A stretch of 59,812 bases of DNA. It comes from Candidatus Staskawiczbacteria bacterium. Lineage in GTDB: Bacteria; Patescibacteriota; Minisyncoccia; Minisyncoccales; Staskawiczbacteraceae. The translations under genes were made by a program, and so were the position numbers. The stretch lies in contig JBAZYR010000007.1 of NCBI GenBank assembly GCA_041659225.1, forward strand, positions 1-59,812. Direction: 5' to 3'. Shown piece after piece: positions 4,443-54,796 of this stretch. Position 1 is the first letter of the stretch; each line of letters begins with the position of its first letter. A model generated the notes under the pieces. That model was not told the DNA's origin, ran no database searches, and was given only the letters and a program-made list of their open reading frames with translations.

Positions 4443-5072
4443 TTAACGTGAATAAAACTCGAAAATTATTGAGATCTCGGCAGGAGGCATTACCTCGGCA
4501 AGTGATGGCTCCCCTTTAACTTTTCCTATTAATGTATCTTTATTGATTTCTAGCCAGGATGGTATTGTTCTCTTTTTAAGCTGTACTTCAATATCTTTAA
4601 AGGCTCCCTTTTTCTTTTTGCCTTCCCGGATAGCTATTAGGTCGCCCTTCTTCATTTTGAACGATGGTATATTCACGGTTTTGTTGTTCACCAAGAAATA
4701 TCCGTGGGAAACCATCTGCCTTGCATTAGTTCTGGATTTAGCTAGGCCTAAGTTAAAAACTACGCTGTCTAATCTTTTTTCTAATCTTTTGATAAGCTCG
4801 TCGGCAATATCCTGAATTTTCCCTCGTTTTTCCAAAATATCTACAACATATTGCTTGAATTGGTATTCAGGCAAACCATACCAGCGTCTTAGTTTCTGTT
4901 TTTCGGTTAAAGCTTTTTTGTAGCCTGAAGCAGCGCCTGGCCTTCTCTTTTTCTCCGGACCAGGAGGAAAGGCCCTCTTAATCATAGCGCATTTCGCTGA
5001 TGCGCATCTTTCACCCTTTAGAAACAACTTCTGGCCGACTCTCCTGCAAATTTTACATTTATTGCTGTTCAT
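4443..5072 (-). CDS. rpsD: 30S ribosomal protein S4 (Cys4 zinc-finger form)
   Basis: CKICRRVGQKLFLKGERCASAKC N-terminus, S4 domain VSHGYFLVNNKTVNIPSF. Confidence 0.95.
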   Translation of the reverse strand: MNSNKCKICRRVGQKLFLKGERCASAKCAMIKRAFPPGPEKKRRPGAASGYKKALTEKQKLRRWYGLPEYQFKQYVVDILEKRGKIQDIADELIKRLEKRLDSVVFNLGLAKSRTNARQMVSHGYFLVNNKTVNIPSFKMKKGDLIAIREGKKKKGAFKDIEVQLKKRTIPSWLEINKDTLIGKVKGEPSLAEVMPPAEISIIFEFYSR

Positions 5073-9300: not shown

Positions 9301-9900
9301 GCCGGCAAATCGATGAAGTAAAGTGAAGTTTGAACCGTCAACTCCGACTGAAAAGATTACTCCGACGTCGGCAAGACTACCACCATTTTTAGCCATTCCA
9401 TAAAGCGTGGAGCCGGAGAGGACTAAAGCACCAAAAGGATAAGAGCCATCATTAATCCCGCCGGCGAACTCGTGGATTAGAGTGAAGGCTGAACCATCAA
9501 CTCCCATAGAAAAAATAGTGCCGGCGCTATTATCGCCGCCAAGAAGGGTCATTCCATAGAGCGTAGTGCCGGAAACAAGCAAGGAACTGCCATAATAGGG
9601 CCAAGCGCCATCGTTGACCCCACCGGCAAACTCGTGAAGAATAGTGTAGGTGGTGAGATCATCCGGATCAACTGAAAAAATCGTTCCGGCGTCGTCATTA
9701 CCTCCATTGGTGGTCATTCCATAAAGCGTGGAGCCGGAAAGAACCAAGGACCCTTGCGGAGTCTTGCCGTCAGCAACCCCGCCGGCAAACTCGTGCAGCA
9801 TAACGGTACTGGTCGCGCTAGCCATCGCTGGGATAATGATAACGCTAAAACAAAATAGAGAAATTAGCGATATATATATTTTACGAGAGAACATTACCAT
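6388..9900 (-). CDS. Multidomain secreted surface protein: 7 GloVer-type repeats, Calx/Ig-like region, trypsin-like serine peptidase domain, cadherin-like repeat, FN3, C-terminal peptidoglycan-binding domain
   Basis: Signal peptide. Seven ~53-aa units of LHEFAGG..DG..P.GSLVLSGSTLYGMT..GG....GTIFS....DGS.FT. Triad-like motifs TPLHVLVANH / DSDIQLLVL / GDSGDAGF (Ser codon 7729-7731). Cadherin-like ATDSHGGDSLSYAFVSGNTGSAFAINSSTGAITV. FN3-like PSSLTLVADSASQITASWS. PG_binding_1-like YFGPLTLKAVQCFQNKY. Confidence 0.75.
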   Translation of the reverse strand: MVMFSRKIYISLISLFCFSVIIIPAMASATSTVMLHEFAGGVADGKTPQGSLVLSGSTLYGMTTNGGNDDAGTIFSVDPDDLTTYTILHEFAGGVNDGAWPYYGSSLLVSGTTLYGMTLLGGDNSAGTIFSMGVDGSAFTLIHEFAGGINDGSYPFGALVLSGSTLYGMAKNGGSLADVGVIFSVGVDGSNFTLLHRFAGGVADGSDPYSSLILSGSTLYGMTNTGGDANVGTIFSIGTNGLNFTLLHEFAGQPNDGASPSYDSLVLSGSTLYGMTKSGGDSNVGTIFSVGVDGSGFTVLYDFINAAGNNPLGSLIIFDSIFYGMTSTGGSSLVGDIFSVGVDGSGFTVLHNFAGGVDDGANPYGSLVLSGSTLYGLTSIGGNANVGTIFSYSLLADTTPRPVASPSTVSVTEGASDSFSISLSTEPTANVVISLAVTAPGYGSSISISPSTLTFTADNWSIGQTVTVSALNDSAYSGNRIAQITESITSTDTDYNNYDASPVSVGITEDETWPSSVVGCSPLNSSDLCEEMTYEVENRLTSLTPSDSTQDIWATRGNGASGWSRNSSFWGADLDFTGVSPWNSNGYYRAGTLITPLHVLVANHYPINNNSTVIFVTADNTIVSRTVSDQMQIGDSDIQLLVLNAAVPATIAYYPIMSYEQFKDYSSSLRVPLVLFNQLDSPILKDMVGFGLGTITDASIIHETPSPTDSERYAFRGDIIAGDSGDAGFFVVNDQPVLVLTNQTVVSGPFIGRYIDEINDAIVTLGDGGGYQVTALDLSAFVPNSVPAVTAATLSITTGSVAGTAVGTVSATDSHGGDSLSYAFVSGNTGSAFAINSSTGAITVNDPSAFDSQINSQFTLVVSATDDWPYPGTGTGSITVNVLPNVPSSLTLVADSASQITASWSANSNPVGTQYYIENTTASTNSGWTTDTSWASSDLTCSKSYSFKVKARNGDGLSTSYTDISAATTLSCGGGGLPAGALQPPIIPQGGFSVSINSNASTTNSRIVTLALAAGSDTLRMALSDNPEFTNAVQTQYLATTTWMLPEGNGTKTIYAKFFTKYGQASAAVSDSIVYNQEKVTDPELQYIFNKNLYLGIVDKDVIQLKLILAAEDCISGVSNTTYFGPLTLKAVQCFQNKYKAEISNLSGYTISATGYFGPGTRGWVNGMSK
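8700..9804 (-). repeat. Seven tandem ~159-nt coding repeats (GloVer-type units)
   Basis: The string cattccataaagcgtggagcc(g/c)ga(g/a)a recurs at ~9071, 9237, 9395 and 9716, and in degenerate form elsewhere. Confidence 0.8.
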
Positions 9901-9964
9901 ATTTAAAAACGATCAACGACAACGTGCAATTTGTTATAGGCTCTTCGTCATTAACTCCCTCCCT

Positions 9965-11245
9965 CTATTCAAACTTCAATTCAATCTTAATCTTCTCTTG
10001 GTCATTAGGCGCCTTTTTCACCCAAAACGGCCAAAAATCCACTACAACGCTATTGATTTGCTCAGGAAATTCTCCGTTTATAACATTCGTGATCTCACTG
10101 ACTTTCTTTCCCATAAAAGCCAAAGTCATGGCTTGTTCGTCAATCGTTGGGAAAACCTCTGTAACTATATTCAAGTTAAGCTCTATTTCTTTTGTTTTTA
10201 AATCCACTGTTTCTGAGCCGTAGTTTAAAACAAAACTTTTTTGCAGAATAGTTTTTTCTCCGGAATACTGATCAAGAATATATTTTACGGCTATATCTTT
10301 CAAATCCGCTTCCTTAATCACTAGCGCGCTAACCTTCACCTTTGCCTTATATGTGAACTTCTCCACCTCTGCGCCGGCTTTAACCGAGGAAGAGCTTTCA
10401 AGGACATCCTTGGCGAAAGAATCGTTAAACATGACTAAAGATTCCGATGATATTTTTCCCTTTAAAATATCTTCGGTATCGCTTAGAAGTTTCTGCGTTA
10501 AACTATTCTTTGCGTCTTCAATATCCTCAGCTGTAACTATTTTTAAAGCTGACTCATAACCACCGGTCATCTTTTCAGTTGTTTCTCCGTAAATGTTATA
10601 AAAGGAAGCTGTGCCGGCTAACCCGGGGAGCGAAAACTTTGAAGGATTGATATTATATGCTTCCCCCGACTCAACCGCAGTAACCTTAACATCAACCCAA
10701 CCAGGAGTTACTTTACTGCCTTTAATTTCAGCTGCTGGAACAGTTACCTTATTAACTGATCTAAATAGTTTTCCTGTATCGGATAAAAACCTTGTCTTGG
10801 CCACAAAGGTAAAAGATTTTGCCGGATTCGCCTTGTTATATACCCGAATAGTTCCTCCAGCTATCCCCTCTTTTGAGCTTGAGCCGGTTGCAGGAAACTC
10901 TTGAAAAAGTTCGTTCTCTTCTTCGAGAAGTTGCGCAGGGACTTCATTATTCGCTAAATCAACTTCCAGCACATCAACGCCGGCTGTTATCGGCTTATCC
11001 AAAGCAACGGCTTCGGTTTTAGGCCAAATCTCGACCTTCGCTGAGGCTAAGGCAAAATATAAATAGCTGGCGAAAAGAACGATGACAATCCCGGCAAAAC
11101 TGAAAATCACTTTCAATCTTGAAAACTCTTTCTTGCCTTTCTTAGACTTTTTTTTCTTACTTTTGATTCCCATTAAATCTTTTGCTTTATCTTCCACGTC
11201 GGATATTAAATGCGGCGGGATTATATCGAAAAACTTTTTAGCCAT
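9965..11245 (-). CDS. Hypothetical membrane-anchored protein (N-terminal MAKKFFDIIPP motif, one TM helix, large extracytoplasmic domain)
   Basis: Long ORF with a basic stretch, then TM helix VIFSFAGIVIVLFASYLYFALA. I cannot name a family with confidence. Confidence 0.6.
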   Translation of the reverse strand: MAKKFFDIIPPHLISDVEDKAKDLMGIKSKKKKSKKGKKEFSRLKVIFSFAGIVIVLFASYLYFALASAKVEIWPKTEAVALDKPITAGVDVLEVDLANNEVPAQLLEEENELFQEFPATGSSSKEGIAGGTIRVYNKANPAKSFTFVAKTRFLSDTGKLFRSVNKVTVPAAEIKGSKVTPGWVDVKVTAVESGEAYNINPSKFSLPGLAGTASFYNIYGETTEKMTGGYESALKIVTAEDIEDAKNSLTQKLLSDTEDILKGKISSESLVMFNDSFAKDVLESSSSVKAGAEVEKFTYKAKVKVSALVIKEADLKDIAVKYILDQYSGEKTILQKSFVLNYGSETVDLKTKEIELNLNIVTEVFPTIDEQAMTLAFMGKKVSEITNVINGEFPEQINSVVVDFWPFWVKKAPNDQEKIKIELKFE

Positions 11246-13154: not shown

Positions 13155-13200
13155 TAGGTAATTGTAGCTTAATAAAAAAGGAAATTCAAATTTAATGTAT

Positions 13201-13234
13201 AAAAAGAGGCCTCCGGAGGGTTGCCCCGGAGGCC
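13201..13234 (-). terminator. Strong intrinsic terminator ending structured RNA element A, about 45 nt upstream of the alaS ATG
   Basis: Minus strand: GGCCUCCGG-GGCAACCCU-CCGGAGGCC (9 GC-rich bp) followed by UCUUUUUAU. Confidence 0.8.
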
Positions 13235-13766
13235 CTTGGCATGCGATTCGCACGAACTTCCTGTCAGGAAGACACAGTGCGGCGCCGAAAAAGGGCTCGC
13301 ATACCTATACTAGGGCCAGAGATGATCTCTGGCGAGAAAATGTGCTAAAAAGATGGACAGTTGACAGACGGCTTGAGCTGTCGGTTTGAGTGTCGGCGGC
13401 GGGCGTTTTGCCCTGAATCGGACTATGTCGCCGATAGGGTAGCAACGTTGCCCCCAGAATCTCGGAACCACAGCGTGGGACCGGCCCGCGTTCACGCGAA
13501 AGCGCTCCCCGGGCATCGTTGGGCCGTTGGTAACCGTTTTGTGCAACTCTAGAATTGCACAATCATTCGCCTCAGTGACAAACTGGTGGCTCTCCAAGAG
13601 AGTCAGTCTGAAACTACTCAGCTTACATCGCTTGGCACACGATGCATGCTTTCGGTCCGCATAAATAGCGGGTTAGGCGAATACTGTCAACTGTCCAGGA
13701 GATTACTTATCACCAAATATGATAAACAATCTACTGGACAGCTGATATTCTTAAATGAACAACCAC
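13201..13766 (-). ncRNA. Unclassified GC-rich structured RNA or leader (element A) between the ykuK-like gene and alaS
   Basis: GC-rich block in an AT-rich genome, with overlapping ORFs in several frames. Perfect 13-bp closing helix 13696-13684 / 13367-13355. Nested helices 13682-13675 / 13572-13565, CAGACUG/CAGUUUG (G-U valid only on the minus strand), GUGCAA/UUGCAC and CGCG-UGAA-CGCG. Own promoter and terminator. Confidence 0.6.
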
Positions 13767-13772
13767 TCTGGT

Positions 13773-13800
13773 ATATTAGCAAATCAATACTGCTTGTCAA
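13773..13800 (-). promoter_or_regulatory. Sigma70-like promoter for element A / alaS
   Basis: Minus strand: TTGACA (13800-13795), 16-nt spacer, TAATAT (13778-13773). Begins 4 nt after the ykuK-like stop codon. Confidence 0.55.
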
Positions 13801-46272: not shown

Positions 46273-46509
46273 ATATCTTTTTTCTAACGGAGCTAGATGA
46301 GAAAATCCCAAGCAGCAAAAAAGCCCAGTGTTACTGAGCGTCTCTGCGCCCCGCTATTCTTAAAATTTCAATAATAATCTAAGTGGGTGTCCTCACGTTT
46401 TGGCCAAGGCCAGAACAAATATTGGACTCCCTATAAAAAAGTTTGTTAGAAATTTTTAATTGGCAGGGCTGCCTCTATTTTAACTCCTTTAAAGATAAGG
46501 TCAAGACCC

Positions 46510-48451: not shown

Positions 48452-48509
48452 ATCTTTTTCTATTATACCCCTATCAGAGTAAAAACTATTAGGGTATATC
48501 TAATACCCC

Positions 48510-48539
48510 TTGACAAAGTATTATGATATATGGTATAAT
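48510..48539 (+). promoter_or_regulatory. Near-consensus sigma70 promoter with extended -10
   Basis: TTGACA (48510-48515), 18-nt spacer ending TGG, TATAAT (48534-48539). Confidence 0.6.
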
Positions 48540-48606
48540 GTATATGTGTTCGTTACCAACCGTTTTCCAGGGATGGCTATACAGCCAATTACGAAAGGGA
48601 AATGCC

Positions 48607-48792
48607 ATGCAATTCAAAGTGGTTTTCAGCGCGTCGGATAGAGGTAGAGCCCAGGTAACCGATGAAGAGCGTCGGGCGAGCTTCGAGAAAGAGCTCAACA
48701 CGCTCGGAGCCGAGGGGTGGGTGGTCGCTAAGGTTGAGTTCCCGAACGGACCCAACAGCAACTCCTACCACGCCCTCATGCAGAAGAGCTAA
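48607..48792 (+). CDS. DUF4177-like small protein (61 aa)
   Basis: MQFKVVFSA...FEKELNTLGAEGWVVAKVEF. SD AAAGGGAAA upstream. The track start at 48523 lies inside the promoter. Confidence 0.55.
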   Translation: MQFKVVFSASDRGRAQVTDEERRASFEKELNTLGAEGWVVAKVEFPNGPNSNSYHALMQKS

Positions 48793-48832
48793 TCCTGGCT
48801 CCCCGATCACCTCCCATTTTAGGAGAGTTACA

Positions 48833-48994
48833 ATGACGGACAAGAAAAAGAGAGCCAAATGGCTCAAGAAAGCAAAGAAGGCGATGCTCAAGGGAACGAT
48901 TTCCCTTCAGCAACTCAAGGCGAGCCAAACTGGTACCTGTGTGACCACGGTCAGACAGCTCCAGGAGGAGCTCCCAAAGGGGCTGATCGACTAG
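48833..48994 (+). CDS. Hypothetical basic 53-aa protein (below the ORF-track cutoff as an independent ORF)
   Basis: AGGAGAG SD 6 nt upstream of the ATG; MTDKKKRAKWLKKAKKAMLKGTISLQQLK... Confidence 0.45.
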   Translation: MTDKKKRAKWLKKAKKAMLKGTISLQQLKASQTGTCVTTVRQLQEELPKGLID

Positions 48995-48996
48995 GT

Positions 48997-49084
48997 TCTC
49001 GCTTCGGCGAGAGCAACAAAGTCCTTGTACCAGCGCGTACGAGGACTTTTCATTTAAGCAAACACCCCTTTTCAAGGGGCGTTT
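48997..49084. terminator. Three consecutive hairpins between convergent small genes
   Basis: UCUCGC-UUCG-GCGAGA (48997-49012). AAAGUCCU...AGGACUUUU (49018-49050). CCCCUU-UUC-AAGGGG with flanking U/A runs (49062-49084). Confidence 0.5.
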
Positions 49085-49101
49085 GTTAAGAGTTCTTTTT
49101 C

Positions 49102-49263
49102 CTATTTCTTGTTTCCTAGGATTCGAAACATTTTAGTTCCGCAAACCGGGCAAGTGCCAGACATGGCGTTTCTTTTTTTGCCTCCCTTTGCGTTGAAACT
49201 AACTTCCTTCGGGTCTTTCATCTCTCTTTTGGCCTTGCATTTTACACAATAAGCTTCTGTCAT
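49102..49263 (-). CDS. DUF5679-type zinc-ribbon protein (53 aa; not in the ORF track)
   Basis: Manual translation: MTEAYCVKCKAKREMKDPKEVSFNAKGGKKRNAMSGTCPVCGTKMFRILGNKK. Confidence 0.7.
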   Translation of the reverse strand: MTEAYCVKCKAKREMKDPKEVSFNAKGGKKRNAMSGTCPVCGTKMFRILGNKK

Positions 49264-49416
49264 TGTTTTTCTTCGCCACCGCTGGTTGAGGTCCGTTGTT
49301 TACCAACGGTTGAACTCAGCTAAATTTGCCAGAGGGCAATATTTAACTGGAGTAAAGGCGATTTGTTTATTAAACTCGACCTTGTTTTAAATTAAAGTGT
49401 TTTTTCCTCTGAGCCT

Positions 49417-49445
49417 ATTCTATACCTATATATGAGGGCGGTCAA
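49417..49445 (-). promoter_or_regulatory. Candidate promoter driving a ~150-nt leader and the DUF5679 gene
   Basis: Minus strand: TTGACC (49445-49440), 17-nt spacer, TAGAAT (49422-49417). Confidence 0.45.
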
Positions 49446-49458
49446 CCTAAAATGCAGA

Positions 49459-50264: not shown

Positions 50265-50792
50265 TTACTCTTTGCAGCAATCAATTACTTTTTTTACCAC
50301 CTCTCCTAATTTTCCAAGAAATCCTTTCTTATCTTTATCTTCTTTATTCAATTGGTCGTCATCAATCTTTTTCATATCTCCAACGTTAACCAGTTTCAGA
50401 TTTATTCCCCAAAAAAGGGAATAGAGGTTATAGGCTTTTGAAAATAGGTCTTCGGCGTCTGATTTCTTGCCTTGCGAGAGATATTTGGTTCCTACCTCCA
50501 TCAGCCTCATTGAAGCTGCTAAAAGATGCTTGGAGATGCACCAAACTTCTCCTTCATAGTCTTTTATTATTCTCTTGAGCAAATCCTTCCTCATCTCCCG
50601 CGTAGTCAGTAATAAATCATAATACTCGCTTTTCCCCGTCTTCGCTCCGGTAAAGAAAAAATGCTCTTCGATTGAGATTAAGTTCATTATGGCAATAGAT
50701 AAATCCTCATCAGAAGACAAATCTAAGCCGCTCTTTTTGCTTTCTTCAACTTTCTTTATTAAGTTTTCTACTTCCTTATCTAACTCTACCAT
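50265..50792 (-). CDS. Hypothetical helical cytoplasmic protein
   Basis: 175-aa ORF, overlapping the upstream gene by 7 nt (translational coupling likely). Confidence 0.6.
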   Translation of the reverse strand: MVELDKEVENLIKKVEESKKSGLDLSSDEDLSIAIMNLISIEEHFFFTGAKTGKSEYYDLLLTTREMRKDLLKRIIKDYEGEVWCISKHLLAASMRLMEVGTKYLSQGKKSDAEDLFSKAYNLYSLFWGINLKLVNVGDMKKIDDDQLNKEDKDKKGFLGKLGEVVKKVIDCCKE

Positions 50793-51295
50793 TTGAGTAA
50801 ATAATATGTGATTAAACTAATGACAGCCAAAAAGGAAACTGGGAAGACTACCTTCTGATAAGGGAAATATGGCTTCCCGTTATTTTTTTTCTTAGAAAGT
50901 TTATACGCTAGAGCTCCCAATAAAAACGTAATCGTTCCTATGACAATTCCAAATAGTATTCTATCAATTCCCCATATTTTATTCAAAGGGTGTCCGATAA
51001 TATTTGTGTAAAATAGCGGTAAAAGGGTTAATAAATAGAACGCTAACACTATAGTTAGATTGCGTAGATAGAAATTAAGCTTTTTTTGATCGAGATAATC
51101 CAAAAGCCACATTATCATTGATACTATCAAGCCACCTATCCAGATGCCGGATATGATGTCATCTATCCCAATCCACCGGGAAAAGCCAACTCCGGCACCA
51201 ACCGCAACTGTGCAAAGGGGGCAAATCGCTTCAGTTCTTTGCCCGACAAGGAGGCCGAAGGACAATAGGCTTAGAAAAAAGTATAATTTCTTCAT
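50786..51295 (-). CDS. Polytopic membrane protein with a single CPLC motif at the first periplasm-facing boundary
   Basis: Signal/TM1, then EAICPLCTVAVGAGVG; about 5 TM helices; only two Cys in the protein. 4-nt overlap with the upstream thioredoxin-fold gene. Confidence 0.6.
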   Translation of the reverse strand: MKKLYFFLSLLSFGLLVGQRTEAICPLCTVAVGAGVGFSRWIGIDDIISGIWIGGLIVSMIMWLLDYLDQKKLNFYLRNLTIVLAFYLLTLLPLFYTNIIGHPLNKIWGIDRILFGIVIGTITFLLGALAYKLSKKKNNGKPYFPYQKVVFPVSFLAVISLITYYLLKW

Positions 51296-51672
51296 TGTAC
51301 AAGGGCTCTCATTTTAAGATCAAAAAAATTGACGATCTCGGTTTCTCCCTGTATGCAATTGGTTCCATCCCATAAGAAAGGTATGGATATGTTGCTTGTG
51401 TCCAGATTACAGGCTTTGGCCTTCTCTATCAGAGAATTGATGGCTTCTTGATCATCCCCTATTTCTACCTTCTTAAAATTTATTTTCTTTTCTACTCCAT
51501 TATCCTGGATATATTTGGCGACATTCTGGCAGTGAGGACAAACTGCGTTAGAAAACAAGACTATTCCAGATTCAGGAAGAGCAGCGCTTTGCTGATAAAG
51601 AAAAAACACAGCTATCGCTATAATTACAACGGCAACAACGGCGATTATTGCGATTAATATATTTTTATTCAT
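51292..51672 (-). CDS. Membrane-anchored thioredoxin/glutaredoxin-fold protein with DsbA-type CPHC active site
   Basis: N-terminal TM helix ILIAIIAVVAVVIIAIAVFFLY, then VLFSNAVCPHCQNVAKYI. Confidence 0.7.
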   Translation of the reverse strand: MNKNILIAIIAVVAVVIIAIAVFFLYQQSAALPESGIVLFSNAVCPHCQNVAKYIQDNGVEKKINFKKVEIGDDQEAINSLIEKAKACNLDTSNISIPFLWDGTNCIQGETEIVNFFDLKMRALVQ

Positions 51673-54376: not shown

Positions 54377-54413
54377 ATTTTTAACTCTGCCATAATAAAA
54401 CTCATTTTTCAAC

Positions 54414-54437
54414 GAAAAAGGCCACGAGTGTGTGACC
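54414..54437 (-). terminator. Intrinsic terminator ending structured RNA element B
   Basis: Minus strand: GGUCAC-ACACUC-GUGGCC (contains a G-U pair that would be a C-A mismatch on the plus strand), followed by UUUUUCGUU. Confidence 0.6.
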
Positions 54438-54762
54438 TATGCGGAATGAAGGAATAAATTGGAAAAGAGCAAACGCTGCTGGGCAGTCGACAGGGTTGGT
54501 GTAGGGTATGCGCCCAAGTAAGAGCATCTCATGCACACATTGGGTCCGGGATCCACCCTAGCTCTCCTTGGGAATAATCCCAAAACCTTGTTTCGGGAGT
54601 CGGCTCCCGAATCATCCCTATCCTACGCACCACCTGCGCGTGGAGGTTGTGCCATGGCTAGCACCAGCTTCTCTGTGATGCTTCGGCCCTGTCAACTGCC
54701 CAGCAAATTAGTAATTAATTGAATAACAACTAATTTGCCGAGCATTTAACAGTTTTACAACC
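54414..54762 (-). ncRNA. Unclassified GC-rich structured RNA or leader (element B) between nifU and the membrane-protein/mnmA/thiI operon
   Basis: 18-bp closing helix 54704-54687 / 54495-54478 (G-U on the minus strand, C-A mismatch on the plus). Inner helices AGCAUC/GAUGCU, GGGAG-CCGA-CUCCC, UUGGGA-UUAU-UCCCAA and GCGCA-GGUGG-UGCGU. Own promoter and terminator. Confidence 0.6.
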
Positions 54763-54768
54763 AGAGTC

Positions 54769-54796
54769 ATAATAGCAAATAAAAGCTTAATGTCAA
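54769..54796 (-). promoter_or_regulatory. Sigma70-like promoter for element B
   Basis: Minus strand: TTGACA (54796-54791), 16-nt spacer, TATTAT (54774-54769). Begins 8 nt after the nifU stop codon. Confidence 0.55.

Follow-up and report, generated by a model that had tools for sequence, protein, structure and literature searches.

Element B, a candidate structured RNA gene with a three-strand scaffold in the isc-mnmA operon of a Candidatus Staskawiczbacteria bacterium

The window analysed here, a stretch of 59,812 nucleotides from Candidatus Staskawiczbacteria bacterium (contig JBAZYR010000007.1), carries on its minus strand element B (54414-54796), an RNA unit of ~350 nt with the genes for Fe-S clusters on one side and those for tRNA thiolation on the other. 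Coordinates given without a locus name are window positions. Element B looks like a real, separately transcribed and highly folded RNA gene, and its sequence suggests a young and fast-evolving unit and not an ancient sulfur or tRNA sensor. The favoured reading, to which an even chance is given, is that B encodes a structured RNA from a gene that stands alone and belongs to a small, recent and lineage-restricted family in Patescibacteria of Parcubacteria type, built on a strand-exchange scaffold in which one strand has two mutually exclusive partners. With three instances known so far, the family is thinly sampled and would count as an orphan candidate.

Architecture of element B and its scaffold

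According to the initial annotation, a promoter and an AT-rich leader come first, a closing helix of 18 bp surrounds a GC-rich core, and a terminator ends the unit. Each of them was located on the minus strand, and the sequence features together with the folding bear out the view of B as a minus-strand structured RNA with its own promoter and terminator. The parts of B, all on the minus strand, are the following.

54769..54796, minus strand: promoter of the sigma-70 type, TTGACA-16-TATTAT with an extended -10 TG, 11/12 consensus matches
54738..54762, minus strand: AU-rich 5' leader, with the putative transcription start near 54762
54749-54738, minus strand: strand (1), UUAAAUGCUCGG, inside the leader, pairing with strand (2) at 11/12 positions
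54705..54737, minus strand: AT-rich hairpin between strands (1) and (2), present in the minimum free energy (MFE) and centroid structures
54687..54704, minus strand: strand (2), the 5' strand of the closing helix, GCUGGGCAGUUGACAGGG, pairing with CCCUGUCGACUGCCCAGC
54496..54686, minus strand: GC-rich multibranched core of 191 nt with several stable hairpins
54478..54495, minus strand: strand (3), the 3' strand of the closing helix, CCCUGUCGACUGCCCAGC, pairing with strand (2)
54455..54471, minus strand: boxA-like sequence plus spacer, UGCUCUUUUCCAAUUUA, in the U/C-rich trailer, a putative functional site by its likeness to E. coli rrn boxA
54414..54438, minus strand: intrinsic terminator, AGGUCAC/GUGGCCU plus U5, with a 7-bp stem and a 6-nt loop, read from the sequence

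The promoter begins 7 nt past the nifU stop, and the core has a G+C content of 0.56-0.57, against 0.416 across the window. The closing helix comprises 18 bp, including one U-G pair, with an ensemble pair probability of ~1; the 5'/3' duplex of 18-19 bp would be a putative RNase III substrate if B were a processed stable-RNA precursor. The minus strand folds with an MFE of -141.2 kcal/mol (z = -5.1 against dinucleotide shuffles), whereas the plus strand loses 16 kcal/mol in folding energy and reaches z = -3.1. The strand assignment had also been argued from positions in the closing helix and the terminator that form G-U pairs on the minus strand only, and these positions are indeed as described.

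The same architecture recurs in element A (13200..13800, minus strand), a paralogue of B, and in an element at the syntenic site of A in a related genome, L316 (L316 10520-11187). The three have one scaffold in common: a strong promoter is followed by an AU-rich leader that holds strand (1), the AT-rich hairpin separates this strand from strand (2), and a GC-rich core that varies among the elements comes before strand (3), which leads into a U/C-rich tract; the equivalent of the AT-rich hairpin of B stands at the same place in A and L316. In all three elements strand (2) can pair with either strand (1) or strand (3).

Element A: strand (1) UCAGCUGUCCAG; strand (2) CUGGACAGUUGACAG; strand (3) CUGUCAACUGUCCAU
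Element B: strand (1) UUAAAUGCUCGG; strand (2) CUGGGCAGUUGACAG; strand (3) CUGUCGACUGCCCAG
L316 element: strand (1) CUAACUGUCCGG; strand (2) CUGGAUAGUUAGCAA; strand (3) CUGCUAACUGUCCGC

When the three elements are aligned, the helix (1):(2) is paired at 97.2% and the helix (2):(3) at 97.6%, with three double changes in each, while slid registers pair at 17-44% only. At position 5 of strand (2), elements A and L316 carry an A where B carries a G, and the partners of this position in strands (1) and (3) shift from U to C alongside. Likewise, positions 11-12 of strand (2) change from GA to AG in L316, with matching changes in both partners. Structure-preserving substitutions, which the initial annotation had asked for in homologues, are seen, as the closing helix keeps its pairing through compensatory changes in the related elements A and L316. 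Nine cells of the alignment are G-U on the sense strand and would be A-C on the other strand, so that the pairing appears to be read at the RNA level; this favours a pairing that acts in RNA over one that marks a DNA site.

The cores, in turn, differ. Those of A and L316 are nearly equal in length (316 and 320 nt), but blastn finds no similarity between them, and the three cores have neither an 8-mer nor a loop motif in common. All are GC-rich (0.54-0.57) and fold far better than shuffles (z = -7.3 for A and -6.2 for the L316 element, next to the value for B). A consensus fold of A and L316 keeps just the closing helix and one small hairpin. On this sequence comparison, the scaffold would be the conserved, co-varying part and the core would be replaceable or very fast evolving.

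Proposed strand exchange

The proposed mechanism follows the order of transcription. Strands (1) and (2) are predicted to pair first, forming a long 5' hairpin. Once the core and strand (3) have been made, strand (3) would displace strand (1) from strand (2), an exchange that could be seeded at 2-3 free nucleotides of strand (2), and its outcome would be a long-range closing helix that joins the ends of the RNA and is followed by the U-rich tract. The stable form is expected to be the closed one in B and the 5' hairpin in A and L316. Such a switch would govern the end structure of the RNA, the formation of its 3' end and its stability.

Several features agree with this model. In nascent transcripts reaching up to just before strand (3), the (1):(2) hairpin has a predicted P of ~1 in all three elements. 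For the full-length RNAs, B is predicted to be closed through (2):(3) by 4.6 kcal/mol, while (1):(2) is kept by 5.5 kcal/mol in A and by 12.6 kcal/mol in L316. Strand (2) reaches 2-3 nt past its pairing with strand (1). In A and L316 strand (3) is followed directly by (C/U)CUUUUU, and in B the U-rich tract comes only after a short leader-trailer extension of the closing helix. The modelled closed helix resembles a terminator with a very large structured loop. The TTGACA found within strand (2) was also considered as a second promoter and rejected, as it reads UUAGCA in L316 and is not followed by a -10 box in B.

A number of points weigh against this interpretation. The scaffold is known from three instances in two genomes, and shuffles reached the observed covariation in 33/500 cases for (1):(2) and in 17/500 for (2):(3); shuffle controls on three sequences are only suggestive, and if one DNA site existed in three copies that change in parallel, some of the covariation would be mimicked. 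Where transcription starts, how the RNA is processed and which two conformations it takes are all predicted, and the predicted ground state differs among the members. The consensus fold of A and L316 reaches -46 kcal/mol, compared to ~-147 kcal/mol for each of them alone, and their cores have no common sequence; cores that are not shared are unusual for an RNA with a specific molecular function.

Lineage restriction and rival explanations

The conservation of B was assessed on 80 NifU loci from species-representative genomes and then on the closest NifU relatives in a large protein collection. NifU relatives place the window in the Patescibacteria, of Parcubacteria/Staskawiczbacteria type. In the species representatives mnmA directly follows nifU, and in the closest relatives (80-81% identical NifU) the nifU-mnmA gap is 25-55 nt, without a membrane-protein gene. 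The gene order DUF5652, Rrf2, IscS, NifU, MnmA, ThiI, SDR, DUF5679, metallo-beta-lactamase, ADK-like is kept in these relatives. B is absent from all syntenic NifU loci inspected, and nhmmer, run with both B and A, detected nothing similar in 80+ related loci; nor was there a conserved aptamer upstream of mnmA-thiI across species, given the short gap in relatives. Because the syntenic relatives lack B, it appears to be lineage specific and not a conserved regulator of tRNA thiolation. B and the adjacent membrane-protein gene thus seem to be specific to this lineage, and B is best seen, on these comparisons, as a recent insertion into the isc-mnmA operon and not as a conserved sensor of sulfur or tRNA status.

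Two ideas raised in the initial annotation fail. It had placed B at a plausible control point between cysteine desulfurase/IscU and tRNA thiolation, but relatives keep iscS-nifU-mnmA-thiI with the short gap, and the same scaffold stands in an unrelated context, between an RNase H-like gene and alaS. It had also asked whether the family of the downstream membrane protein is always preceded by this RNA; homologues of that protein (48-63% identity) are found in different gene neighbourhoods, where the 0-139 nt upstream of them leave no room for such an RNA.

The first alternative is that B acts in cis, as a leader or attenuator of the membrane-protein gene, mnmA and thiI, with a closed form that would stop transcription, at the (2):(3) helix with its U-tract and at the canonical terminator, while hiding a boxA-like Nus-factor site, and an open form that would expose boxA and allow RNA polymerase to read through. 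This is doubtful, although it has some chance of being right. Between the terminator of B and the downstream genes (ATG 54376) no good promoter was found; downstream genes would hence depend on read-through, and B would physically gate transcription into mnmA-thiI in this lineage. The alternative pairing with an upstream competitor strand is conserved, and a terminator follows. The trailer of B adds a further argument. The E. coli rrn boxA plus spacer is ugcucuuuaacaauuua (PMC2724277), and the trailer sequence UGCUCUUUUCCAAUUUA (54471-54455) is identical to it at 15/17 positions; the boxA part alone, UGCUCUUUA-like, matches at 8/9. Matches with <=2 mismatches are expected 0.08 times in the whole window, a value to be read knowing that the match was noticed after the fact. 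In L316, UGCUCUUU likewise comes after strand (3), where the sequence reads UGCUCUUUC. In the predicted closed form of B most boxA positions are paired with the 5' leader, and the open form frees their 3' half. From its sequence, this boxA-like site would be the only lead to a candidate partner, NusB/NusE.

Against the cis gate stands the absence of B from the closest syntenic relatives, so that it is not an ancestral regulator of these genes. Strong terminators follow A and the L316 element, alaS has a promoter-like site of its own, and element A contains no boxA-like sequence. Nor is a shared ligand-binding domain visible, since conservation does not extend to the cores. The boxA-like match in the trailer and the lack of a good promoter downstream nevertheless make a gating role, and a local regulatory effect of B on mnmA-thiI in this one lineage, possible on thin evidence.

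A second alternative takes B for a palindromic insertion that is selfish or mobile, comparable to miniature inverted-repeat transposable elements (MITEs) or REPINs, with the 14-18-bp inverted repeats as transposition ends and an RNA that has no host function. The spread is patchy, which fits such an origin: B is missing in syntenic relatives, and A is missing in the related locus L311 and present in L316. The helices of A and B are also more alike (14/15) than those of A and its syntenic counterpart in L316 (11/15), and other GC-rich palindromic insertions occur in relatives, some of them apparently within mnmA. This reading is unlikely, however, for only two copies exist over the ~70 kb available from this genome, and ~700 kb of related loci yielded no other than that of L316, reading the flanks by eye revealed no target-site duplication at the boundaries, and the cores of the copies are unrelated, unlike those of MITE families. 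Moreover, the conserved part includes the promoter and a strand (1) that co-varies with the repeats, and every mismatch between copies is a G-U pair when read on the sense strand. The translations from 31-59.8 kb (read by eye) and Pfam on the ten open reading frames (ORFs) beside A and B revealed no transposase or recombinase, most ORFs of the first 31 kb not having been individually inspected; this bears equally on the inverton discussed below.

A more speculative proposal, to which little weight is given, treats the scaffold as a reusable RNA module, perhaps derived from the leader and spacer of an rRNA operon; none of the Patescibacteria loci covered contains an rRNA gene. A decoy strand upstream would hold strand (2) for as long as the enclosed RNA is still folding, and the exchange would then close a long-range helix that acts as a terminator and hides or exposes a Nus-factor boxA; the copy inside isc-mnmA-thiI would newly gate the tRNA-thiolation genes, and at each locus the scaffold would carry a different core, rapidly replaced.

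It is very improbable that strands (2) and (3) are the inverted repeats of an inverton, whose core would be flipped by a site-specific recombinase. The same inverted repeat does stand at two loci of one genome with differing intervening DNA (195 and 316 bp), and both arms show parallel changes. Yet the core has no strong outward-facing promoter and shows a strong strand-specific RNA folding signal, wherever the two arms differ the sense strand has a G-U pair, and a single orientation is found in five assemblies of the A locus and in one assembly of the B locus (L081). The A-locus assemblies come from different samples, and 3/5 of them are identical to the window; at the B locus the one other assembly compared, L081, is identical to it. 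Such identical strain assemblies provide no covariation data from strain variation.

Scarcely credible is, finally, a divergent housekeeping RNA (RNase P RNA, transfer-messenger RNA (tmRNA), signal recognition particle (SRP) RNA, 6S RNA) or a small protein gene, even though known RNAs of this lineage can miss the Rfam gathering scores (6S RNA scores ~27 bits) and a 63-aa ORF on the plus strand spans the core of B. At gathering scores the sole Rfam match in the window is tRNA-Pro, with none for B, and a permissive E-value search of B gave merely weak, chance-like matches to hairpin models of microRNAs and snoRNAs. This permissive search is informative because it recovered a 6S RNA that the gathering search had missed: the divergent 6S RNA of this genome (RF00013, 27.3 bits, E = 8e-4, below the gathering score). 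The match to a known housekeeping RNA that the initial annotation wished to see excluded was thus searched for, and none was found for B or for A. No Rfam family matches B, A, or the L316 or L311 elements in searches by gathering score or E-value; T-box models give no match up to E = 10 for B or A, and covariance models of RNase P RNA, tmRNA and SRP RNA give none for B. ARAGORN detects no tmRNA. B is not 6S-like either, being multibranched and not a rod with a central bubble, and the 6S RNA of this genome lies elsewhere (46344-46472). A housekeeping RNA would, in addition, be conserved in relatives, where B is absent. As for the plus-strand ORF, whose conservation would have spoken for a protein, it has no Pfam match, and a search of 1.84 billion protein representatives returned only low-complexity matches, spread over several stretches of giant repetitive proteins, which is an effect of composition; it is not a conserved protein. 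No reverse transcriptase gene lies by the elements, whose neighbours encode NifU, the membrane protein, MnmA, the RNase H-like protein and AlaRS, which speaks against retrons, and no account of such an RNA in Patescibacteria was found in the literature. B matches no known RNA family and is, to judge from these searches, unclassified.

As an observation on its own, the 6S RNA at 46344-46472 (minus strand; unit ~46300-46500) has its own promoter and terminator. The same 6S element is found behind the ADK-like gene of both L302 (17120-17659) and L304 (18352-18617), and L014 has a similar sequence after nifU.

Known systems, related elements and neighbouring genes

Under the favoured reading of B as a stand-alone RNA with a strand-exchange scaffold, the closest known systems include transcription attenuators and riboswitch expression platforms. 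There, too, a strand such as strand (2) has two exclusive partners, one of the helices stands directly before a U-rich tract, and the order of transcription decides which helix forms first. In the scaffold, by contrast, the competitor strand stands upstream of the shared strand instead of downstream, and the loop under the terminator-like helix is itself structured and 195-320 nt long. The scaffold has no conserved ligand-binding core, and two of its three members stand alone, each with another strong terminator behind it.

The precursors of rRNA type combine a strong promoter, a leader hairpin, a long 5'/3' stem that is cut by RNase III, and a boxA antitermination site. B resembles them in its near-consensus promoter, in the pairing of its leader with its trailer, in the long perfect helix that joins the flanks of a GC-rich structured RNA and in its boxA-plus-spacer match just past the 3' strand. 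In rRNA operon spacers boxA comes after the 3' strand of the 16S processing stem, and the likeness of B to them lies in a boxA-like sequence after the 3' strand of a long helix. The enclosed RNA, in contrast, is neither rRNA nor a known stable RNA, and A carries no such site.

CsrB/CsrC and RsmX/Y/Z are fast-evolving small RNAs (sRNAs) with multiple hairpins and paralogues of different length. The elements resemble this type as stand-alone genes with strong promoters, intrinsic terminators, differently sized paralogues and little sequence conservation, and differ from it in having no common hairpin-loop motif such as GGA; we know of no counterpart of the three-strand scaffold in sRNAs of this type. 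With invertons and MITE/REPIN repeats they share short inverted repeats common to several loci of one genome, variable DNA between them and a patchy spread, and what sets them apart is that their G-U pattern is strand-specific, that a third strand co-varies, that the cores are unrelated and the copies few, and that no recombinase was found among the inspected ORFs.

Intergenic spacers are very short in the tiny genomes of Patescibacteria, which makes it unlikely that two long and highly structured RNAs with strong promoters and no known relatives are idle. A true strand-exchange switch would be of unusual design, with the competitor upstream and the regulated helix around a whole folded domain; the conserved part would be the switch, and the enclosed domain would be replaceable. 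The locus also indicates that isc-nifU-mnmA-thiI, conserved in relatives, can gain a module of promoter, RNA and terminator in one lineage.

Element A sits between the RNase H-like gene and alaS, and its sequence suggests a stand-alone unit. Its parts are the following.

13800-13773, minus strand: promoter TTGACA-16-TAATAT with TG, placed similarly to that of B
13745-13734, minus strand: strand (1)
13698-13684, minus strand: strand (2)
between strands (2) and (3), minus strand: core of 316 nt
13367-13353, minus strand: strand (3)
13235-13207, minus strand: terminator with a 12-bp GC-rich stem
13200..13800, minus strand: the whole element, with promoter, three strands, core and terminator

A and B have in common the type and region of the promoter, the AT-rich hairpin and the 15-mer CUGGRCAGUUGACAG with its complement; the 15-mer of strand (2) of B, CTGGRCAGTTGACAG, is found in A at 13684-13698. 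The true start of alaS in public calls is ATG 13154 (MNSFNVRQKF...; 621 aa), with a promoter-like site at 13189-13161. The GTG 13253 of the ORF list was rejected as its start, since the gene would run through the terminator of A.

In L316-L319, whose RNase H-like homologue is 80% identical, a 668-nt gap at the syntenic site of A holds the same architecture; compared to A, the L316 element has compensatory changes in the helix, and a strong terminator follows it. In L311 and others (83% identical RNase H-like homologue) the site of A carries a simple terminator and promoter and no A element. Scanning ~700 kb of Patescibacteria loci for the helix motif, and for any three-strand arrangement followed by a T-tract, returned only A, B and the L316 element, and ~10 kb more of the same genome on one side of the window contained no further copy. 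The 15-mer alone gave only chance matches in viral contigs. The pattern of promoter and strand (2) had 94 matches in metagenome contigs, none of them with a strand (3) partner, and phage and plasmid collections showed no similarity to the elements. The metagenome matches (L208-L301) were rejected as family members: nearly all represent one unrelated conserved marine sequence, a coincidental match over a 116-nt stretch in ~90 contigs, some of which are also in IMG/VR.

Other palindromic sequences were noticed along the way. L311 has a small GC-rich element (9760-10001) between the triose-phosphate isomerase (TIM) and RNase H-like genes, in which a 9-bp hairpin, GGCAGUUGA...UCAACUGCC, recalls the closing helix of A and B. 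GC-rich palindromic insertions with closing helices of 14-16 bp occur in relatives, in L002 (~4885-4989), L004, L007 and L302/L303 (9831-9956); those of L002, L004 and L007 appear inside the mnmA coding region, and that of L302/L303 lies between iscS and nifU. Outside the window, in the same genome, L309 contains two intergenic copies (441-602 and 1797-1900) of the motif UCUAACUCUACCC...GAAGGGGAGC, the second one just downstream of a nucleoside deoxyribosyltransferase gene and before an uncalled small ORF. By their sequence, these L309 motifs look like a small cis-regulatory RNA.

According to Pfam, the gene neighbours of B encode Rrf2, a class-V aminotransferase (IscS/NifS), NifU_N, a small membrane protein, MnmA and ThiI; the small membrane protein, downstream of B, has no Pfam match. 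The initial annotation had let the U-tract of the terminator overlap a TTG start of this gene. A TTG does lie beside the tract, at 54412, but it is probably not the true start, because public gene calls use ATG 54376 (141 aa) and the homologues are 136-152 aa long.

Further along the operon region, three small genes lie from thiI to the SDR gene, namely 51292-51672 (126 aa, glutaredoxin-like), 50786-51295 (169 aa) and 50265-50792 (175 aa), and a single gene of 376-380 aa takes their place in the closest relatives, which marks another rearrangement of the operon region, the second that is specific to this lineage. Between the metallo-beta-lactamase and SDR genes there is a 1-kb stretch (48452-49458), a spacer that is much shorter in relatives. 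It contains a small minus-strand ORF for a DUF5679-like zinc ribbon and a GC-rich segment (up to 0.61) with ORFs overlapping on both strands.

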